A stretch of 63,265 bases of DNA, the filler included, from Chrysochromulina tobinii (Eukaryota), in assembly GCA_001275005.1 (NCBI GenBank). It is 11 parts of 11 records of this genome, joined end to end, with 100 filler letters (N's around TTAATTAATTAA, not from the genome) between each part and the next. Parts side by side here need not be neighbours in the genome. Positions count along the whole stretch, not along the records: positions 33,836 to 38,683 come from JWZX01000435.1; 10 more parts are not named here. One strand, written 5' to 3'. How positions within the stretch are numbered: the stretch's first letter is position 1; the number at the start of each line of letters is the position of its first letter. The position numbers were made by a program, and so were the translations under genes. The notes beneath the pieces were generated by a model. It saw only the letters and a list, made by a program, of their open reading frames with translations, was not told the origin of the DNA and made no database searches. This document shows, in pieces, positions 12,855 to 38,783 of this stretch.

Positions 12855-13268
12855 ATCCTGCACGTTTTATCCGGATATATTTGGCGGCTCGCTTAGTGGC
12901 TCCTTTGAGCAGCTCACACGAGTTTGTTTTTTATTTTAGGTTGCGAGTCGTTCTCGGACGTGACGTGACGTCTCGTTAAGGGATTGAATGTTTAGAATGC
13001 CGCGGGAGCTCGCCATGGCGCGAGTGGGTTCACGGAAAAACCGCCCTTCATGCGAGTCGGTTTAAACCGGGTCCGGGACGCGCAGCATAACTGTGAAAGG
13101 CTTTTCTCGCACTTTTCGTCTCGTGGCGACACCTCGACTGGTGCCACCGCTTTTTTGTTTGAGCGTTCNNNNNNNNNNNNNNNNNNNNNNNNNNNNNNNN
13201 NNNNNNNNNNNNTTAATTAATTAANNNNNNNNNNNNNNNNNNNNNNNNNNNNNNNNNNNNNNNNNNNN

Positions 13269-13597
13269 AGGGAGGGAGGGAGGGGAAGGGAGCACGCGCG
13301 CGGCGCGCGCGTGCGCGCGCGAGAAAGTAAGAGATTCGGGAAGGAAAGGGAGCACGCGCGCGCGAGAGAGAGTGATGCGCGCGCGTCAAGGGGGGGGACA
13401 GGCGCGACCCCTGTGAGTCGGCCGCAGCGCACCGCATGGCAACGCTCGGCATCGGCCCCCGCACTGCCATCCCCATGCCCGATAGGAACTGGTTCTCCGC
13501 GTGCGTATCCACGAGCTTTGAAGGCGTGGCGGGGGCGCTCTGGCCGACGTCAGCGTCTATCGAGGTGCGGTTACGGGGCGTTGGTGGCGGTGGTGGC

Positions 13598-13634
<37 letters not shown>

Positions 13635-14190
13635 CGCCGCCGGGCGAACCCAGAGGGGGTGGTGCGAGGGGCGGCGGCGCGAGGGGAGGCGGCACGAGAG
13701 GCGGAGGTGCGAGGCGTGGTGGTGCGAGGGCAGGCGGCGCGAGGGGAGGCGGAGCTAGCGGCGGCGGCAACAGTGGAGGTGGCACGAGCGGCGGCGGCGC
13801 GAGTGGTGGAGGGGCGAGCTGTGGAGGTGATTGGGGAGCCACCGCGGCCTCTGCACCAGCATCATCATCTTCCGCGGTCGAAAGCTCCGGTCCAGATCTA
13901 AAGAGTTCGGATCGTGTTCCAGTGTACTTGACTCCACCGTGGACTTGCGATACACTGAGGGATGCCCGACGATGGTCGGACGGCTTAACGTTCTCTTCGC
14001 TGGAGACCGACACTGACGGCTGCATGCTCTCAAGCTTCTCGAGCTTCGAGCGCAGCAGCTTGATCTCAGCTCGGGCTAAGTCCAGCTGGACCTGCAGAGA
14101 AGGGCTCGACTTGCGCGACGACAAGCCACCGAAGACTCGGGTGAGGCTGTAGCTGCGCCGTGGCCTTGGGGCACTCTCATCCGTGGGCAT
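13269..14190 (-). CDS. Coiled-coil plus polyproline (FH1-like) protein, 3'-truncated by the contig end
   Basis: ATG at 14190, short coiled coil, (LAPPP)n and poly-P tract; probable GTGCGC donor near 13432; no FH2 domain visible. Confidence 0.5.
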
Positions 14191-14923
14191 CTTCGCGCCT
14201 CGGTCGAAACAAAAAGCGAGTGCGGATCAACGTCTCGGAGCGTGCACCAGCTCGATCGCTGCAAAAGGGTCGCGCCGCCGTCGCAATTCACCAATTAGGC
14301 ATGCAAATTAGGCATCTTTGGCCACGTGGCATGACTGCAAGCAAGCAAGGAAGTAAGGAAGCCCTCTCCGCCCACCCTTTCCTACCCCGTTGGCTATAAG
14401 GGTATTCGTTTGCGCTGGTTTAGGTACTTGTGTGTCTCGACCAAGGAGCTTGCTTGCATGACTGCAGAGGTGCTTCAAGGGTATTCAAAGGGAACTGGCC
14501 GTGTCGATCATTCGACTTCAGCGCACGCTCGAAATGTTTTTTTCACAGACTTTTACACTGTCGACTCAATCGGAGACTATCACTATGTCGTCCGAGAACC
14601 ACACACGTGTGAGGAGACTGGTGGAAGAGACTGACATGAAGAGCGGAGACTCGACTCGCCCGCGCCCCACACGCGGCGGACTGCGCCGCTCACGGGTTGT
14701 CGTCCGCGGTCCCGGGTCACACGCACACACTCACACAGCTCAGCAGGCAGCCAGGCACCCCCGGACGACTCGACTTGGCAGTTGCATGGCATCGCGCCCT
14801 GGCATGGCGCCCGGGGCCCGGCTACCCTCACGTACGCCGCGCCGTTACCACACGCGCTCTCGCGCCCAAACTCGCTCGCACACCCCACCCGCTGCGCCAC
14901 GTGCACCCCCCCTTTTATAGGCA

Positions 14924-16145
14924 TCAGCGGCCCCGCCTGTAGGAGTCTTCAATCTTGCGCTTGCTCACAACCGTCCCAGCCTTGGTGTGCAGCTTGTACG
15001 TGCACTCCTCCATCAGGAATCGGCCGCGCTGGTAGTCTTCAAAGGCCTGCATGAGCAAGCATGGTTGCAGGCATGATTGCATGCATTGGGCCGGTGACGA
15101 TCAAATTCAATCTGACGCAATCAGAGGCACTCAGGGAAGGCATCACGGGAGCCCTCAGCCGTCCTCACCTGCATGATCTGGGCCTTGGTCGACATGACAA
15201 ACGGGCCGTGCTGCACGATGGGCTCCTTGAGTGGAGTGCCCGCAAGGAGCACAAACATGAGGCTGCTGCCACGGTCCGCCCGGATCGCCACGTCGCCGGT
15301 GGCGCCGAAGCGGAGCACCTCGCCCTTCTGTGCCACGACGGCGCTCGAGCCGAAGCTGCCCGCGCCCTCGTACACGTACCTGTGTTTCACAGGCCATCGG
15401 TGTGATTCACAGGCCGTCGGAGCGATTCGAGAGCCACTCAGTAGTACTCCAGAGTCCACCCAGGAGGCAATCAGATGCAATCGGTAGCACTCCAAAGTCG
15501 ATCCAGCGGCAATCTGCGGCAATCAGCGTACACGAAGAGGGTGCTCATGCCGGCCGCACGGGGGTGCACCACCTCAGCGCCCGGCTCGAGCATGTAGTCG
15601 ACATACTGGCAGTGGATGCCCTGCGAGTCCACGGGCGACGTCTGCCCTTGCAGCTCGCCGACCAGCAGCTTGGCTTTCGCCTTCGGTGCCACGTCGATGA
15701 GTGGGAGAGCGTCGGACCTCGCGTTCTGGAACTCGGGCGGGTCGAGTTTGTTCTCGCTCCGCAGGTTGATCCAGAGCTGGAACCCTTGCACGGGGCCATC
15801 ATACGTCGCATCGAACTTCATCCCGTGCTCAATGCCGCTTCCGCACTTGCCCCACTGGAGCTGCCCCTCTGCGAAGACCGCATCCTCGCCCGCAGCCTGC
15901 ATGTTCCACGGATCAGTCGCGAGCCAGCGGCCCTGCTTGAGGTACGGGACTTCGTTGAATCCACGGTGCGGGTGCATGCCAAACTGGGGCATGGACTTCA
16001 TGGGCGCCGGCCCAAAGTGGTGCAGCATGAGGAAGGGGTCTTGCTGCTCGTTCGAAAACTTGTCAAAACAGTCGGTCACGAGGATCTTGCCGGTGCCAAA
16101 AGGGTCCGTCTTGCCAGGACTGGCCTTCTTCTCGACGGTGGCCAT
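14924..16145 (-). CDS. PIR: Pirin-family bicupin, 3 exons (16145-15532, 15379-15169, 15046-14924), about 315 aa
   Basis: DPFLML, HPHRG, LQW...GIEH, GFQLWINL, EPIVQHGPFVM and AFEDYQRG; both GT-AG introns join in frame. Confidence 0.92.
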
Positions 16146-29198: not shown

Positions 29199-30153
29199 TG
29201 AGGCAGCTCCTCGGACCTGGCACGATCTCGAATCCGAGCTGCTCGAGGCACTGGAAATGCCCCTCTGAGATCTGCTGAGTCTGCTGCGATCTGCTGCGAT
29301 CTGCTGCGATCTGCGGCGCACGCCGTGCACTTTGAGTGAGGTCTGACGGCGAGAAAGCCGCGGCTGCCCGCCCTCGTCGCGTGTAGCGTGCAAGGTGCAT
29401 GCCACATGGCGCTTCATACTACGTACACGTCGAAACACGTGCAAGGCCGAACACGCAACAGGCCAACACCAGCACCGGATCCGGAACAGGGCGGACACGC
29501 GGTGTGCCGTGTCGTGTGCTGCGTCGGTATGCGGTGAACGGTCGGTGTACGGCGAGCGAGACCGCTGAGACCGCGAGACGCAGAGACGGCAACCTAGAAC
29601 CGTTGACGCTCATGCGAGCTGCGAGACGCGCCACGCGACGTCGCTCGTCGGGACGCCGAGACCGGCGCCGGCGCGGTGTGATCACGGTGGCTGTGCGGGG
29701 CCGCTGCGCGCACACCGGTCTCGGTCCAACCTCCGGACGGGACGCCACCGCGGACTCGATCTCGGAGCGCGAGGAGCCGGACCGGACGGACGGCGGTCTG
29801 ACTGCTCTGTCCTCCGGACGTCCGGAGCCGAGCGCGCGTGTGGAGGTCGATAGTAGATGCGGCATGCGCGCGATTCATCAGTGTAAGGTACGCCATACGC
29901 AGCGTATTTTGTTTTTGCGTATTTTCAGCATTTTGCGTATTGCGTATTTTTGACCCGCATTNNNNNNNNNNNNNNNNNNNNNNNNNNNNNNNNNNNNNNN
30001 NNNNNTTAATTAATTAANNNNNNNNNNNNNNNNNNNNNNNNNNNNNNNNNNNNNNNNNNNNCATCTGGGCGAAATCCAGGAAATCTCACCTCCTTAGCGG
30101 CGCCCCGCTTGCTGGCCTGTTGCCAGTAGTCATGTAAGCGCGCCCCCCCCGGG

Positions 30154-33292: not shown

Positions 33293-33835
33293 ATCTCCAG
33301 TATGTCACACTAGTTCTCGATGCCGTCTCTCAGCAACTTGATACAAGGCTCTCCTCCTTAACTGGGGTTGGACCTGCGTCTGTCTGGAGCCGCGGCCTCT
33401 CGTGGACGAAGGGTGCGATCAATACTGTTGATGATTGACCTTGGGTTCAGCAGCCCCCTTGTCGCATCCTCATCGGTTCTATCCGCACCCCTACGATGAT
33501 GATAGGATTTTCACTCGGAGGGGTCAAAACATTTTTTCTGCGGGCCAAGTGGTACGACTAGGACATCGTCGCCGGAGCCAGGAGAGAGCGCGGGGGGCTG
33601 TATGGGCATCAAGGGGGGGGGATCATGATCAGAGCCAGAGCGCGGTGCTTATGGGCCACGCAACATGGGAATCATCGCGAAAGACATCTGTGTGGGCATG
33701 GTGCAACGAGGGCATCGTGATCGGAGCCAGAGCGCNNNNNNNNNNNNNNNNNNNNNNNNNNNNNNNNNNNNNNNNNNNNTTAATTAATTAANNNNNNNNN
33801 NNNNNNNNNNNNNNNNNNNNNNNNNNNNNNNNNNN

Positions 33836-36800
33836 CCGGGACAATGGAGTCGTCGGCGTACCATTCTTGGATGACTGCTCGGACAAGTTCGTCTCGACCT
33901 GGCAGCGGCGTGCCGGCCAGACAGCGTTCGAGCGCCCGCATCACGAGGCCAGCGCAGGGTAAGGACAAGAGGGGAGCTTCGACGCCGCCGATTGGTTCGC
34001 CTCTAAGCATCTTCGCGAGCCTCGTAGGTCCGCGTGCAGTCTTGAAGCACCGCGCATGGCGGCGCGAGTTTGAAGCAGTGCTCATGCGGCATGAGTCGGA
34101 CGAGCACCGGCGCGAAGTTGTCGAGAAGTACTGGACGGAGGCTTACCCGATCATCTACGACGAGGACGACGACGTCTGCATGGACGAGCGCGTGCACGAC
34201 TTGCTTATCAGGCGTCTCACGCCGGGGCGTCTCACGGAGCTGTCCAAAAAGATGAAGGAGAAGTTGGCAACGGGACTCGATGAGTTCACGGGCATGCTCG
34301 TCGACAAGGGCGGCGAGCAGCTGGCGGAGCTCTTCGCCAAGACTCTCATCGAGGAGCTCAAAGGCCTTTGCTTCGCTGAGTCTTGGATCACGGTGCACGC
34401 CACGCTCATTCCGAAACCTGGAAAGGACCGCTGCAAGCTGTCGGGCTGGCGAGAAATCTGGGTGCAGTCGCACCTATGGAAGATGGTCGTGGGCGCCATC
34501 CTACCGGAGTTGAGCGAGCTGATCAACAAGACCAGGCCATGGTGCAACGCGGGCTTCACGGAGCACCGCGGGTGCCCAGAGATGTCCCTCGCGCTCCGAT
34601 GCAGGATCGAGCTCGCGATGCTCTCACGCAAGGAGCTGCATCTATACTTCCAGGACTATTCTGTCTTCTTTCCCAGCCTGTCAAGACAGCTGGTCTCTTT
34701 CATACTCCACGAGATCGGTGTACCAACGGAAGCCATGCAGATCCTTCGCGAGTTCCAGGACACGGTCATGGGCTCGCGCGCCTTGCCGTGAAGACCGGAG
34801 CGTGCGCCCTCATCAATCTGCCCGTCGTCTGCGCCGCATGGCTTTTCCTCCGTGTTGGCGGCGGTTGAAGTTGGCGGCGCATCGGCCGCGCCCTTTGTGT
34901 CTGAGGCCTCCTCCGTGCCTTCTGCTGAGGTTCCCACTACTGCGCCCTTGGCACTGCCAACCGTGGCAGCTGGCCGTAGGCTCTGGGAGTCGGCCTCGAC
35001 ATCTGAAGGAGCCGCGCGTCGGGCGTGCTTGCCCTTGAGCATCCGCTCCTCGAGCACGGCCGCGATCTTCAGGTTGCAGATTCCAGCGATGTGGTCCAGA
35101 TGGCATTTCGCAGGTGCGCAGCAGCATTGAAGAAGCACGCGCTCGTCGCAATTCGTTACCATCTCAACAATGGCGTCGATCTCACCTGCGATGTCACCGG
35201 GCAACAGCCGGCCTGGCCCAGCGACCACATAGGCGAGTGGCAGTCTGTTCCGCTCGGCAACCTCGTAGGCATCTCTTTCGCCCTCGTACCACTCCGCATA
35301 GCAGCGGATGACCGTGTCGCGCAGGGACTCGTCCCTGCCATATCTGCGCCCATGCGGAAAGGGTTGCAGAGAAGGCTGCCTTCGCCGCGCGTGCAGCGCA
35401 GGTGCACCCGGCCCTTGTGCCTCGTTTCAGGCCAGAGATAGTTTCCGACCTCCACGTACGCGCCTGGCGGCGGCTCGTTGAGGGCGAGTAGCCTGACTCG
35501 CCTTCGCTCGCTACGTAGCTGCAGTCGCTCGCTGGCCGCGCGCTCAACAATGGAGAAGAGCGCGCCGCTCGCCTGAGCGCTGCGCCCTCCCAGCTCGCAT
35601 CCTCTGGGTTCTTTGAGAAGGTCGCGCACTTTGCCGGCGGCCTCCAGGTCAACGTTGCTCGCTCGGTTGGCCTCTTCAACGAGATTTGCGACAGCCTCGT
35701 CGCACGCCAGCCCCGTGAGGAGCCTGTCGCCTTCGCCTGAGCGCAGCGCGACCAAGGTGTTGCCCGGCCCCTTGTCCTTGCGTGAGAGAGCGCCCGGCCG
35801 CTCTCTCCTAATGATCGCCTCCGCCTGGCGTCCGAAGCCTATTTCTTGCTCCGACGCCTTTTCCAGTTGAGCGATGGCGTAGTCGAGCCTCGTAGTCGCT
35901 CGAATCTCATTGTACGCTGCCTCGGTGCGCTCAATAAGGACGGCCGCAATGGCCAGCTCCTTGGCCTTGATCAGATCTGGCGGTATATCTGTGGAGCCCG
36001 CCCCGTACAGATCTCGAACCTCTCGAATATCCACGTCACCCAGAATCTCCCAGCGCGTAGGCGGCCCCTTGCCGCCCTCGAAGTTGATGCTCGTGGCCCT
36101 GAGCTCGCTGGCAGACTGTAGGACCTGCTGCAGCGCCGTGATGCGTCGTCGCAGTCGCTCTCCGTCTGACTGTTTGCGCGCGTTTGTCGCCGCCGGTGCG
36201 CCAATCTCCTCGCGGGCGACGCGCTTGCAGGTTTCCATGAGAATTTCCGTTCTCGTTCCGTGCTTTAGCCTGAAGTCCATGCTTGCAGAGCGCAGTGCGG
36301 CTGCCGACTCCTCCTCGGTCAGGCCTCTCTTCTGTTTCCGGAGCTCGTCGAGCGCGCCCGTCTGCGCGAGTTCCCTTTTCATGTCGTAATCCCTAAGGCT
36401 CTCGATGGCCTCGGCCGTCACCCGATCTTGATATGCCGCCCAGCCTACCGGCTCCGCGTCCATCTCGTCGTTGAGCGGCCTCCTCTCGAAGAGCTCGTCG
36501 TCGCTCACCATCACGTCCGCGTCGTCCACAAGACTGCCCGCGCCAGTGTAGTCGCGCTCTGGGAGAGCATCCGCCCGCTCGGACGCCCTCTTTGCCAGTG
36601 CCTTTGCGCGCACCCTCGGTGCCATGGGCTGCTGCGGCATTCGACCCAGCTTGGGCTTCATGGATGAGCACGTCTGTACAAGCTCTGGAGCCACTGTGAC
36701 AATCTCGATCTCGACGGACAGGTGATACTGCTTCGAGCCGTGCACAAAGTGCGTGCCCGCGGCCAGGGCCTTGTCCATGCCTGGCCCTTGGAGAACGTGA

Positions 36801-38683
36801 TCGATGACGTGGTACGAGTACTGGTCCGAGCCCTCGCCGTCCGCCACCTTCTCCACGCACTGGAAGGTGGTCTTCTCCGAGCCTAACCTTGTCCAAATCG
36901 AGCCGTCCTCGGAGTAATTGCCGCTCATGAGCTTGTGCAAGTACGCCTCGCCTGGCCTCTTGCCCGCCTTTTTGTTGATGTCGATGCCGTAGGTCTTCTT
37001 CAGCCTGGCGGCTGTCTCAGCATTCAGGTCCCCGATGATGAGGCTCGCGCTCATCGCCGCCGATGCCGCCTCGATCAGAGCAGTCCAGACCAACTTGTGG
37101 AACTCGGCACTTCTGCTTGAGACGGGCATGTAGCACACAAAGAGATCGAAGCTGAAGTCGTCGTGCAGCATGCGAAGACGAACTCGAAGAACGCGGCCTC
37201 GAAGAACGTGATCCTCCTCCAGCTTCTCCATGATGTTCGGGTCCCAGGCAAAGAGCACGCCCCCGTGATCGTCCTTGGCCGGCGCCGAGAAAACGACGCT
37301 CGGATCGTACTCCGGCAGGACGCCCTTCCACTTGGCCGCCGGGCGTTGCGATCGCCAGTTGAGACGCATCCCGAGATAGTCCGCGATCGCCCGGCCTCCG
37401 TCGTGCTGCGCGTGCACCTCGGAGATGCCGATGGCCGCGATCTTGTGCGACTGGATGTACTCAATGAGCGCCTCGAATTTGTCGTCGCCGTGGTACTTGA
37501 GCGCAGAGCCGTCGCCCTCGTCGCCCGCGGCGTCGTCTCTTTCTAGTTGATCTGCGAGAGCCCCGGCGAGTCGCTGTTGCAACGGTCCCGCCATCCGAGC
37601 CGAGCGCGCCTGGACGGACCGACCAGGGCGCGCATCGATGAGCGTGAGCCCATTCGCGTTCCAGCCCATGATGCGGTGCTTTCTCTCGCGCTCGATCGAG
37701 ATCGTCGGTCGTGTGAGCAATGGCCTTCCTTCGAGCTGTGTGCGCTCCTTGAGCTTGTCAAGCTCATGTCGTGCTCGCCGCACGCCCCACGTGGTCAGAT
37801 TAGCTAGACCAGGCGGCGCAGCTGCCTTGTTGCGGCCGAGCGCGTGAACTCGCTTGGGCCCGCCGGTATCTGCTCGTTCGTCGTCAGCAGCTGCTTGATC
37901 GCCATCAGACGGCCCAGCCCGTACTTGGGATCGCTCGACGCCCACCTTGTCGCGCGCACGTGCTGTCGCGTGCTGGTGCGAGGCGAGCGCGTCGGCCACG
38001 CTGAGTAGAAGGCAGTGCACGTCCATAATAGACCACATTCCTCCCTTGGAGCAGTCAGTCAACTCGACAGGCAGACCTGACGCCTCTCCTCTTAGTAGCG
38101 TCGCTTCGTCGATGCGTAGTGCTCCGCCAAGGGTGATTGGCGGCATCAGTTGCGAGAGCGGATCACGGTCACACAGTCGTCCCAGCGACCGGAAGAGCAG
38201 TTCCGCTGGAAGCGCGCGTATCCAGATCGTGCCTCCGCCCGCCGGATTCTTGAGCCGCTCGATGCTGCCCTTGTCACCCAGACGGGCGAGCAGCCATGTG
38301 ACCAGCCAGGCCGCGCGAGCCAGCTCCGAGGCGACGCTGGACTCCTGCGTGCTCTCTTCGATCGCAGCGATGGCCGCATTGTCCATGGCTCCCTCGCGTT
38401 TAGCCCAGTGATGAGCGAGAGCTTGGTCGCTGCCCAATCCCAGATCGCCTTCCACTGCGGCTCCCACGCTCAAACCCGCGGCGCGAGCCGCATAGGAGCC
38501 AAGGACTCTCAGTGTTGTCTGAGCGCAGTCTTCGAGCAGCGCCTGCGCCGCGGTAGCCGCCGCTACGCTCGCGCCATCAGGTGCGCCGGTGCCTGCTGTG
38601 CCTGCGGTTGCCGTTCCGTGCGCTGCGGCGCGCGCAGCATCGTCGCGCGTGCCTGCCGGTTGCAGGTAAATGTCCGTGGGCAA
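33836..38683 (-). mobile_element. Non-LTR retrotransposon (APE endonuclease, DUF4326-like domain, RT); partial, with one frameshift and an internal inversion
   Basis: EN motifs IMGWNANGL, ISEVH, CYMP, IIGDLNA and IDHVL (about 37670-36710, minus). RT motifs LIPKPGKD, NAGF..RG and LYFQDY (plus, 34051-34778). GEPIG..EAPLL and WYADD (minus; YADD at 33849-33860). Confidence 0.9.
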
Positions 38684-38783
38684 NNNNNNNNNNNNNNNNN
38701 NNNNNNNNNNNNNNNNNNNNNNNNNNNTTAATTAATTAANNNNNNNNNNNNNNNNNNNNNNNNNNNNNNNNNNNNNNNNNNNN

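Follow-up and report, generated by a model that had tools for sequence, protein, structure and literature searches.

A DUF4326 domain between the endonuclease and the reverse transcriptase of a giant single-ORF LINE from Chrysochromulina

The DNA analysed here, a stretch of 63 kb (63,265 nucleotides) from the haptophyte Chrysochromulina tobinii that we call the window, is made up of at least eleven contigs. Spacers of the form N44-TTAATTAATTAA-N44 lie between them (13169-13268, 29962-30061, 33736-33835, 38684-38783 and six more places), and features that seemingly cross a spacer are artefacts. The contig at 33836-38683 (4,848 bp) carries a decayed copy of a long interspersed nuclear element (LINE), in whose intact relatives a DUF4326 domain is encoded between an endonuclease (EN) and a reverse transcriptase (RT). 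The protein cluster to which the product of this contig belongs includes KOO52974.1 (Chrysochromulina tobinii, hypothetical protein) and one Chrysochromulina parva protein. Protein P0018 (4,502 amino acids, aa) was used to map the copy, which lacks the N-terminal 1,600 aa of the complete open reading frame (ORF). What is present reads as follows, from the 5′ end of the minus strand.

37688..38683, minus strand: conserved region upstream of the EN, cut by the contig end (P0018 from residue 1632 to roughly 1995; aligned with P0002, P0003 and P0016)
36683..37687, minus strand: endonuclease resembling the apurinic/apyrimidinic endonucleases (APE-like), of the endonuclease/exonuclease/phosphatase (EEP) fold (motifs WN, SE.H, GDLNAE, IDHVL and QYH; Exo_endo_phos 17.7 bits, E = 0.0031)
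35471..36682, minus strand: conserved linker of about 400 aa from EN to DUF4326 (aligned across lineages; ratio of nonsynonymous to synonymous substitution rates, dN/dS, 0.17-0.40)
35060..35470, minus strand: DUF4326, broken by one extra AT at 35340-35343 (Pfam, phrog_464, AlphaFold2 (AF2) model and BFVD)
34775..35059, minus strand: fast-evolving low-complexity spacer from DUF4326 to RT, which ends ...GLHGKAR at the right inversion breakpoint (P0018 mapping)
34052..34774, plus strand: N-terminal part of the RT with motifs 0-3 (TLIPKPGKD, WREIWV, QDYSVFFP), inverted in place (P0018 mapping)
33836..34051, minus strand: RT motifs 4-5 (GEPIGG, YADD), cut by the contig end (P0018 mapping; L1 ORF2p profile match)

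Two lesions separate this copy from its intact relatives. On the minus strand, frame A stays open over 38683-35156 and gives ...GEGSLLCNPFRMGAD before it passes out of frame, and frame B, from 35426 to 34656, reads GRDESLRDTVIRCYAEWYEGERDAY...VLLQCCCAPAKCHLDHIAGICNL. An earlier note on this DNA had proposed a duplication of 2 nt at 35340-35343, and the two frames are indeed rejoined once one AT of the ATAT is dropped. The rejoined LLCNPFRMGADGRDESLRDTVIRCYAEW is found unbroken, letter for letter, in P0001 (976 aa, 98% identical) and in P0018, and in all four DNA runs compared with the contig most of the depth at 35340/35341 lies on contigs that are short of exactly 2 nt (90.6 of 141 in run X1 and 146.3 of 230 in run X11). 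The insertion is therefore private to the window copy.

The second lesion, which the earlier note had missed, is an inversion. EN, DUF4326, GEPIG and YADD are read on the minus strand, and WREIWV and QDYSVFFP on the plus strand (34052-34774). A tblastn comparison of P0018 with the window places residues 1632-2744 at 38683-35342 (minus, 95.7%), residues 2716-2933 at 35423-34773 (minus, 74.9%), residues 2932-3174 at 34045-34773 (plus) and residues 3175-3245 at 34049-33837 (minus, 100%). The segment 34052-34774 is an in-place inversion of 723 bp that holds RT motifs 0-3, with zero bases lost at both junctions. Its right junction is spanned by a 732-nt contig from each of the four DNA runs, with 0 differences to the window, and contigs of the same runs also contain the un-inverted joints (34049/50 to 34774/5, opposite strands). 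DNA of both kinds thus exists, inverted as in the window and un-inverted in sister copies. Frameshift and inversion together leave the window copy dead. On account of the inversion, the single EN-DUF4326-RT ORF that had been proposed for this locus does not exist in the window copy itself; it does exist in intact relatives, as set out below.

The segment 35060-35470 had been assigned to DUF4326 (Pfam PF14216, gathering cutoff 25 bits) by its motifs. By itself the broken half in the window scores 14.8 bits (E = 0.046), under the Pfam cutoff. Scores in relatives are 25.7 bits for P0001, 35.7 for P0003 and 35.5-36 for P0019-21, and the profile matches the isolated domains of all six lineages at E ≤ 0.1 (best E = 1.9e-10; 29.4 bits for the L002 domain). 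Pfam also finds the domain in each of the five whole giant ORFs that span the region, in four of them just under the cutoff (19-24 bits). The phage family phrog_464, whose function is unassigned, matches the same six isolated domains (best E = 3.3e-13). When a profile of the LINE domains was compared by hhalign with a 103-aa stand-alone phage protein (L017:4932-5243), the probability was 97.6 (E = 4.3e-12); LGNPFRMG and C.CAPKRCH are common to both, and the LINE domains differ by an insert of ~28 aa between helix 1 and the last strand.

An AF2 model of the domain, computed from a six-sequence alignment, has a pLDDT of 84.3 and a pTM of 0.79. Among the 50 BFVD fold matches listed for it, 14 are named DUF4326 and come from phages and giant viruses, the best named one being the DUF4326 model of Vibrio phage JSF7 (probability 1.00, TM 0.53/0.71). 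Alignment A3, with domain identities of 42-51% between lineages, contains 48 invariant columns, among them NPF/SPF, DG.DE, CY..W, DAY and R..L.C.C.P..CHL. The pattern NPF...Y..W...C.C.P..CH, from which the assignment had first been made, is invariant in this alignment, and its NPF and C.C.P..CH parts are also present in the phage member. Other searches added little: a word-indexed protein search with the domain returned only close relatives (three matches), the ESM Atlas only sub-threshold viral DUF4326 clusters (0.83-0.84), PADLOC zero matches for the domain, and a scan of viral_contigs one phage relative and no giant-virus donor. The segment is a true DUF4326, and its identity is settled.

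Intact relatives were drawn from protein and metagenome collections, and a scan of metagenome contigs yielded 16 loci. Continuous ORFs are present in three families, with 4,535 codons in L002, 3,933 in L004 (cut by the contig start) and 4,772 in L006, and all three have the same motif order: GDLN of the endonuclease, NPF with CxCxPxxCH, IPKPGK and YADD. The native layout is thus one ORF of 3,900-4,800 aa encoding an APE-like EN, a linker of 400 aa, DUF4326, a spacer and an L1-like RT. EN and DUF4326 occur together in further lineages (P0003, P0004, P0027, P0029, P0057); P0027 (2,310 aa) has Exo_endo_phos at 909-1147 and DUF4326 at 1634-1733, and P0029 has 1,633 aa. The earlier note had named two results that would count against it, lack of a DUF4326 match and absence of the segment from related copies; the domain is matched, and related copies keep it. 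Taken jointly, the domain identity and the EN-DUF4326-RT architecture are in our view practically certain. The linker between EN and DUF4326 matches no Pfam family and no PDB sequence, and a profile of the EN-linker-DUF4326 region (A1) and one of the C-terminal 1,400 aa (A4) gave noise only against PDB sequences.

The Pfam family Exo_endo_phos matches the EN sequences of five of the six lineages (best E = 5.3e-6), and P0057, with 27.0 bits, is over the cutoff of 24.5. The AF2 model of the EN is of low confidence (pLDDT 50.5), and its Foldseek matches are taken as supportive only: 81 of the 500 counted have E ≤ 0.001, the top rows are L1 endonuclease structures (E = 3.5e-5), and the rows listed comprise LINE-1 EN, TDP2, APE1, EEPD1 and exonuclease III homologues. 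The motifs WN, SE.H, GD.NAE and IDH are kept in the family. The QYH noted in the window copy is part of a Q[YF]H that is invariant in all six EN sequences (A5 columns about 343-346; window 36683-36760), at a position equated with that of SDH in L1 by the order of motifs in the L1 EN, and not by a structural alignment at residue level. The Asp partner of the catalytic EN His seems to be replaced throughout the family.

For the RT, a profile of five sequences found human LINE-1 ORF2p as its best PDB match (E = 8.8e-8, residues 446-705), followed by R2 (E = 0.002); this is a profile match and not a clade placement. The alignment to L1 ORF2p pairs YREIWV with FRPISL, QDYSVFFP with DAEKAFD and GEPIGG with GTRQGC, the equivalences that had been proposed by eye. 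Pfam RVT_1 has no match in any copy, so the earlier description of the RT as divergent is fair; it is unusually divergent. A word-indexed protein search with the RT returned only close relatives (three matches).

The copies also bear the marks of mobility. The element is common to L004 and L005/L015 as far as an (AACTTG)n tail, after which their 3′ flanks diverge. Copies of the L006 type end in (ACTTG)n and start with (TCAAG)5-8, and this 5′ microsatellite has a unit that, reverse-complemented, gives that of the 3′ tail. Two such copies, L007 and L008, differ in their 5′ flanks at an identity of 99.98%, and the L009 subfamily has a third flank; L002, of the window's own subfamily, starts with (AAGC)8 and then ATG. 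In full-length copies of both kinds the start codon follows the microsatellite within 5-7 nt. A copy truncated within the EN is present in L015 and L016, that is in two of three assemblies, whereas L005, with the same 3′ flank, continues 5′ into the element; the truncated L015 copy is bounded by (TTAAG)n on the 5′ side and by a tail of (AACTTG)n. The 5′-junction microsatellites mask any target-site duplication. Given an EEP endonuclease, an L1-like RT, simple-repeat ends, different flanks and decayed copies, the element is an APE-type LINE. The repeats lie at these positions.

L006: 1-35 and 14800-14826
L007: 4730-4775
L009: 4734-4780
L002: 160-198
L015: 9900-9947 and 18890-18910

The complementary 5′ and 3′ repeats could mean either that the ends of the RNA can pair or that the tail is copied again at the 5′ junction during integration.

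In six lineages or more, purifying selection has kept DUF4326. Its dN/dS is 0.078 between L006 and L009 (dS 0.43) and 0.196 between L011 and L004 (dS 0.21), as against 0.18-0.49 for the EN, 0.08-0.20 for the RT and 0.4-0.6 for the spacer after DUF4326; deeper pairs are saturated in dS and weigh less. We read the domain as being like the EN, somewhat above the RT and unlike the spacer. A HMMER search with the domain profile against 1.84 billion representatives returned 286 proteins at E ≤ 0.001, six of them at E ≤ 1e-30, including P0027 and P0029. In a quick maximum-likelihood tree of 160 near-complete domains (173 proteins had hits, less 13 with an incomplete domain), a branch with an SH-aLRT of 97 has all 15 LINE-borne rows on one side; the deep forks are unresolved. 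This sequence tree supports what was probably a single capture of DUF4326 and fits the earlier suggestion of a captured domain; the donor cannot be told from it.

Catalysis by DUF4326 is suggested because the invariant C-x-C-x-P-x-x-C-H loop lies between a strand and a long helix, as in the phosphatases resembling protein tyrosine phosphatases (PTPs). DSSP assigns the strand to 116-120 and the helix to 128-155 of the predicted structure, with the loop between them. PTP-fold and dual-specificity phosphatase (DUSP)-fold enzymes make up 26 of the 50 VIA-align rows listed, at Z-scores of 3.0-3.8 that are below the level the tool counts as telling. A substrate related to ADP-ribose or ribose phosphate is suggested because relatives outside LINEs are fused to NADAR, PARG, Tpt1, NUDIX and SLOG. 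These fusions come from a Pfam scan of 39 of the 150 profile hits listed, which were picked for length. In P0049/P0175, whose cluster has a member from Pterosperma sp., DUF4326 stands in the middle between NADAR and microbial PARG; in P0066/P0183 from Cymbomonas tetramitiformis it is joined to Tpt1/KptA, and the name given by the source is 2′-phosphotransferase. Further fusions are with NUDIX (P0063, P0088), with SLOG (P0037) and with a cytidylyltransferase-like domain (P0050). Among the 39 proteins scanned, six have an enzyme of NAD or ADP-ribose metabolism as partner and two a nucleic-acid enzyme (RNase_T and an AlkB-type oxygenase). Tpt1 makes ADP-ribose 1″-2″ cyclic phosphate and can cap 5′-phosphate ends with ADP-ribose, and PARPs mark DNA nicks. 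Passages from Iyer, Burroughs, Aravind and colleagues (PMC9503650, PMC7824862) place DUF4326 in a predicted rhodanese-phosphatase clade that would process terminal phosphates on the ribose of ADP-ribose.

The whole explanation that we tentatively favour, at slightly less than even confidence, is that DUF4326 is a cysteine phosphoesterase acting on ADP-ribose-linked or terminal ribose phosphates, carried in a degenerate giant single-ORF LINE of the APE type. The domain would act at the nucleic-acid ends that are made or used in target-primed reverse transcription. Its substrate would be a phosphate on an ADP-ribose or ribose end, carried by either the nicked target or the template RNA, and its action might keep target or template usable, so that integration is finished, or might strip a host ADP-ribose mark. 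Taken separately, it is possible that the domain is catalytic and that its role concerns ADP-ribose or ribose phosphate, and we hold this with more reserve. That the LINE has built an NAD/ADP-ribose conflict enzyme into its integration machinery, such that in these algae ADP-ribose marks, borne by nicked DNA or by the RNA template, restrict or license retrotransposition and the element carries its own eraser, is a bolder and unlikely extension. If true, it would be the first retroelement-borne counter-measure of such a kind and would offer a handle on the role of DUF4326 anywhere.

Several observations speak against a cysteine phosphoesterase of this specificity. In all six lineages the loop reads C-x5-H (C-x-P-x-x-C-H) and not the C-x5-R of classical cysteine phosphatases; lacking this signature, DUF4326 is not filed here as a classical PTP, and its superfamily assignment is that given in the passages of PMC9503650. 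Foldseek with the DUF4326 model found nothing in the PDB at E ≤ 0.001, and VIA ranks the RapZ C-terminal domain highest (Z = 6.3), which is not a phosphatase. The fusion partners among the 39 proteins scanned also include RNase_T (P0042), 2OG-Fe(II) oxygenase (P0072), CCCH (P0051, P0070) and a GDSL hydrolase, and Macro, NADAR, PARG and NUDIX are absent from the LINE polyprotein according to Pfam. In the quick tree the LINE clade lies among short, phage-like members, outside the clade that holds the Tpt1 and NADAR-PARG fusions. The loci may share a few related sources, so that the independent observations would be fewer than the loci. APE-type nicks already leave a 3′-OH, and the need for an end-cleaning phosphatase is not obvious. 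In the literature consulted, we found no biochemical test of any DUF4326 protein.

Alternatively, DUF4326 could be a non-catalytic binding module that grips the RNA of the element or a phosphorylated small ligand, and so serve the assembly or regulation of the ribonucleoprotein in a LINE without ORF1. The RapZ match would suit such a role, as it is the best among solved structures and aligns 98-100 residues, and RapZ itself is an adaptor that binds RNA and has a pocket for phosphate or sugar phosphate. The RNA-binding CCCH fingers fused to the domain in relatives P0051 and P0070 point the same way, as does an element with one ORF and no recognisable ORF1. The Z-score of 6.3 is, however, under the telling level of the tool. 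Moreover, CxCxPxxCH is invariant in the six aligned LINE domains and recurs in the phage protein, the loop at the modelled strand-to-helix turn appears to resemble an active site, and the most informative fusions are with enzymes of ADP-ribose metabolism. We consider the binding module rather unlikely.

We are just as doubtful of a nucleic-acid end phosphatase unrelated to ADP-ribose, which would take off a 3′-phosphate or a 2′,3′-cyclic phosphate to let a nick serve as primer, or would trim the 5′ triphosphate of the element's RNA. A baculovirus RNA 5′-phosphatase (1yn9) is among the PTP-fold matches, although its Z-score of 3.2 is not distinct from that of other VIA rows. The chemistry of the cut might itself differ, as the EN has Q[YF]H in place of the SDH of L1, but EEP nucleases leave a 3′-OH. 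The fusions to the RNase_T exonuclease (P0042) and the AlkB-type oxygenase (P0072) would agree with activity on nucleic-acid ends, and these are the two that stand against six with NAD or ADP-ribose enzymes in the scanned set.

Two further alternatives concern the element rather than the activity of its domain. It is very improbable that the giant ORF represents a gene of the cell or of a giant virus, one with RT-like and nuclease-like parts, and not a mobile LINE. The RT goes unrecognised by Pfam, the ORF exceeds the LINE proteins known to us several-fold in length, and target-site duplications were not found, though the microsatellites at the 5′ junctions would hide them; against this, the RT profile matches L1 ORF2p and R2 and otherwise noise, near-identical copies with simple-repeat tails stand in different flanks beside several decayed copies, a 5′-truncated copy is seen in two of three assemblies, and the DNA runs show depths several-fold above those of single-variant contigs. 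The sub-cutoff 14.8 bits and the frameshift and inversion of the window copy might suggest that the domain is no part of the element, and that one decayed contig merely holds a single stray insertion, a chimeric assembly or a motif match by chance. This is already refuted: the domain occupies the same place in three families with continuous ORFs and in further lineages (36-51% identity), it is under purifying selection, and its reading is confirmed in independent assemblies and in contigs from sequencing runs.

LINEs are usually described as an endonuclease and an RT with few extras. The nearest well-known system is human LINE-1 ORF2p (PDB codes 8sxt, 8c8j and 9hdo; EN 1vyb and 2v0r), in which an EEP endonuclease likewise precedes the RT; motifs 0-5 of the two RTs align. 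Both elements have a simple-repeat 3′ tail, a 5′-truncated copy and a Cys-His motif near the C-terminus, and both are free of long terminal repeats. LINE-1, however, has ORF1 and an ORF2 of 1,275 aa, whereas the Chrysochromulina element has one ORF of 3,900-4,800 aa or more, with about 870 aa from EN to RT that include DUF4326. It also differs by its Q[YF]H for SDH, by an RT that RVT_1 misses and by 5′ microsatellites complementary to the 3′ tail unit.

According to the passages of PMC9503650 and PMC7824862 already cited, described DUF4326 members are small and stand alone or are fused to Macro, SLOG, NADAR, replication or restriction-modification parts. The LINE domain shares LGNPFRMG and C-x-C-x-P-x-x-C-H, the phrog_464 match and the viral fold models with the DUF4326 proteins of phages, giant viruses and algae; here, unlike there, it lies within a retrotransposon polyprotein and has no ADP-ribose partner domain in the same protein. 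To the PTP and DUSP cysteine phosphatases the likeness is that of a predicted strand, Cys loop and helix, as in the 26 VIA rows mentioned above; the Z-scores are 3.0-3.8 only, C-x5-R is absent and there is no match at the level of sequence.

Captured domains in LINEs are known already, including an RNA-virus helicase in lepidopteran TRAS (excerpts of PMC5563155) and esterase or PHD modules in the ORF1 of CR1/Jockey (excerpts of PMC4120745). As these excerpts describe them, TRAS and CR1/Jockey resemble the present case in that a foreign enzymatic or binding domain was built into a LINE protein and retained as the family diversified; they differ in the domain and its predicted chemistry, in its position, which here is between EN and RT and not in ORF1 or at an end, and in the host, here a haptophyte. 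For DUF4326 in a LINE we found no description. None of the DUF4326 literature places it in retroelements by title, a search that did not extend to the fuller 2023 superfamily analysis (Burroughs and Aravind); in the literature searched PF14216 is unmentioned, and rhodanese-phosphatase is never joined with retrotransposon. The literature on haptophyte or Chrysochromulina LINEs holds nothing on this family by title or abstract, Repbase being outside the scope of the search. Within that scope the element is undescribed, as the earlier note had supposed.

A haptophyte LINE, its polyprotein three- to fourfold larger than is usual, has thus retained under selection a domain that is otherwise at home in phages, in giant viruses and in algal proteins of ADP-ribose metabolism. 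Should the cysteine phosphoesterase account hold and the domain be active, retrotransposition would be tied to ADP-ribose chemistry at DNA or RNA ends, and the element would offer a setting, eukaryotic and selectable, for identifying the substrate of a widespread, uncharacterised viral domain. The green-algal fusions with Tpt1 and with NADAR and PARG are natural starting points for the same search.

Some features of the giant ORF lie outside the region between EN and RT. Apart from ankyrin repeats, the first 1,600-2,000 aa belong to no recognisable family, and the ESM Atlas returned nothing for the N-terminal 1,635 aa. The ankyrin repeats are at residues 606-823 of P0018 (L002 about 2000-2700; Ank_2 29.4 bits, DARPin matches at E = 1e-13), and Pfam did not detect them in the L004 and L006 families. 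Near the C-terminus, a C..C....RCD.FHF.EC motif is common to the three families (ORF residues 4432 in L002, 3289 in L004 and 4126 in L006); many LINE proteins have a C-terminal Cys-His motif. An RNase H-like stretch (TDGS..AEHMAL..MDSENV..SAHVG) was seen by eye downstream of the RT at L002 12154-12843; Pfam gave nothing there at E ≤ 10, a profile compared with the PDB gave no support either, and we do not claim it. Contigs from RNA libraries that are identical to L002 span much of the element including DUF4326; DNA carry-over is possible and expression is not claimed. In two RNA libraries, contigs have 23 extra nt after L002 13549, where the ORF ends at 13704 and the next ORF spans 13442-15688. 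The extra nucleotides would fuse the frame of 4,535 codons with the downstream ORF, which runs off the contig, and the intact protein of the window's subfamily may exceed 5,200 aa.

Four independent in-place inversions were found at four different places of the element, with nearly equal lengths of 726, 729, 723 and 731 bp.

L001 5505-6230 versus L002 8996-9721: the inversion shared with window 34052-34774
L003 2262-2990 versus L002 4364-5092: inversion, derived state unassigned between the pair
L011 1134-1856 (= L012-L014) versus L004 3396-4112: inversion
L009 13307-14037 (= L010) versus L006 9241-9971: inversion

Three of the four are confined to decayed copies, the L002/L003 pair being excepted. 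All four junction pairs are clean, with neither a shared motif nor a long inverted repeat, and we know of nothing that makes inversions of fixed length at arbitrary sequence. An ambiguity in the de Bruijn graph was rejected as their source, given that the junctions are without long inverted repeats or a shared motif and that contigs from the runs carry both forms. We also considered that an inverted patch might come from another copy when the RT jumps onto antisense RNA. Identities between L006 and L009 differ from block to block (83.8%, 90.2%, 95.3% in the inverted block and 74.8%), but region-specific constraint explains this equally well, and the idea was dropped as unsupported. Substitution spectra showed no editing-like bias. 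These inversions of about 727 bp in dead copies, together with the 5′ repeats complementary to the 3′ tail, are unexplained and merit study. A shorter inverted piece, of 274 bp, lies beside a deletion in L001 (1861-2134).

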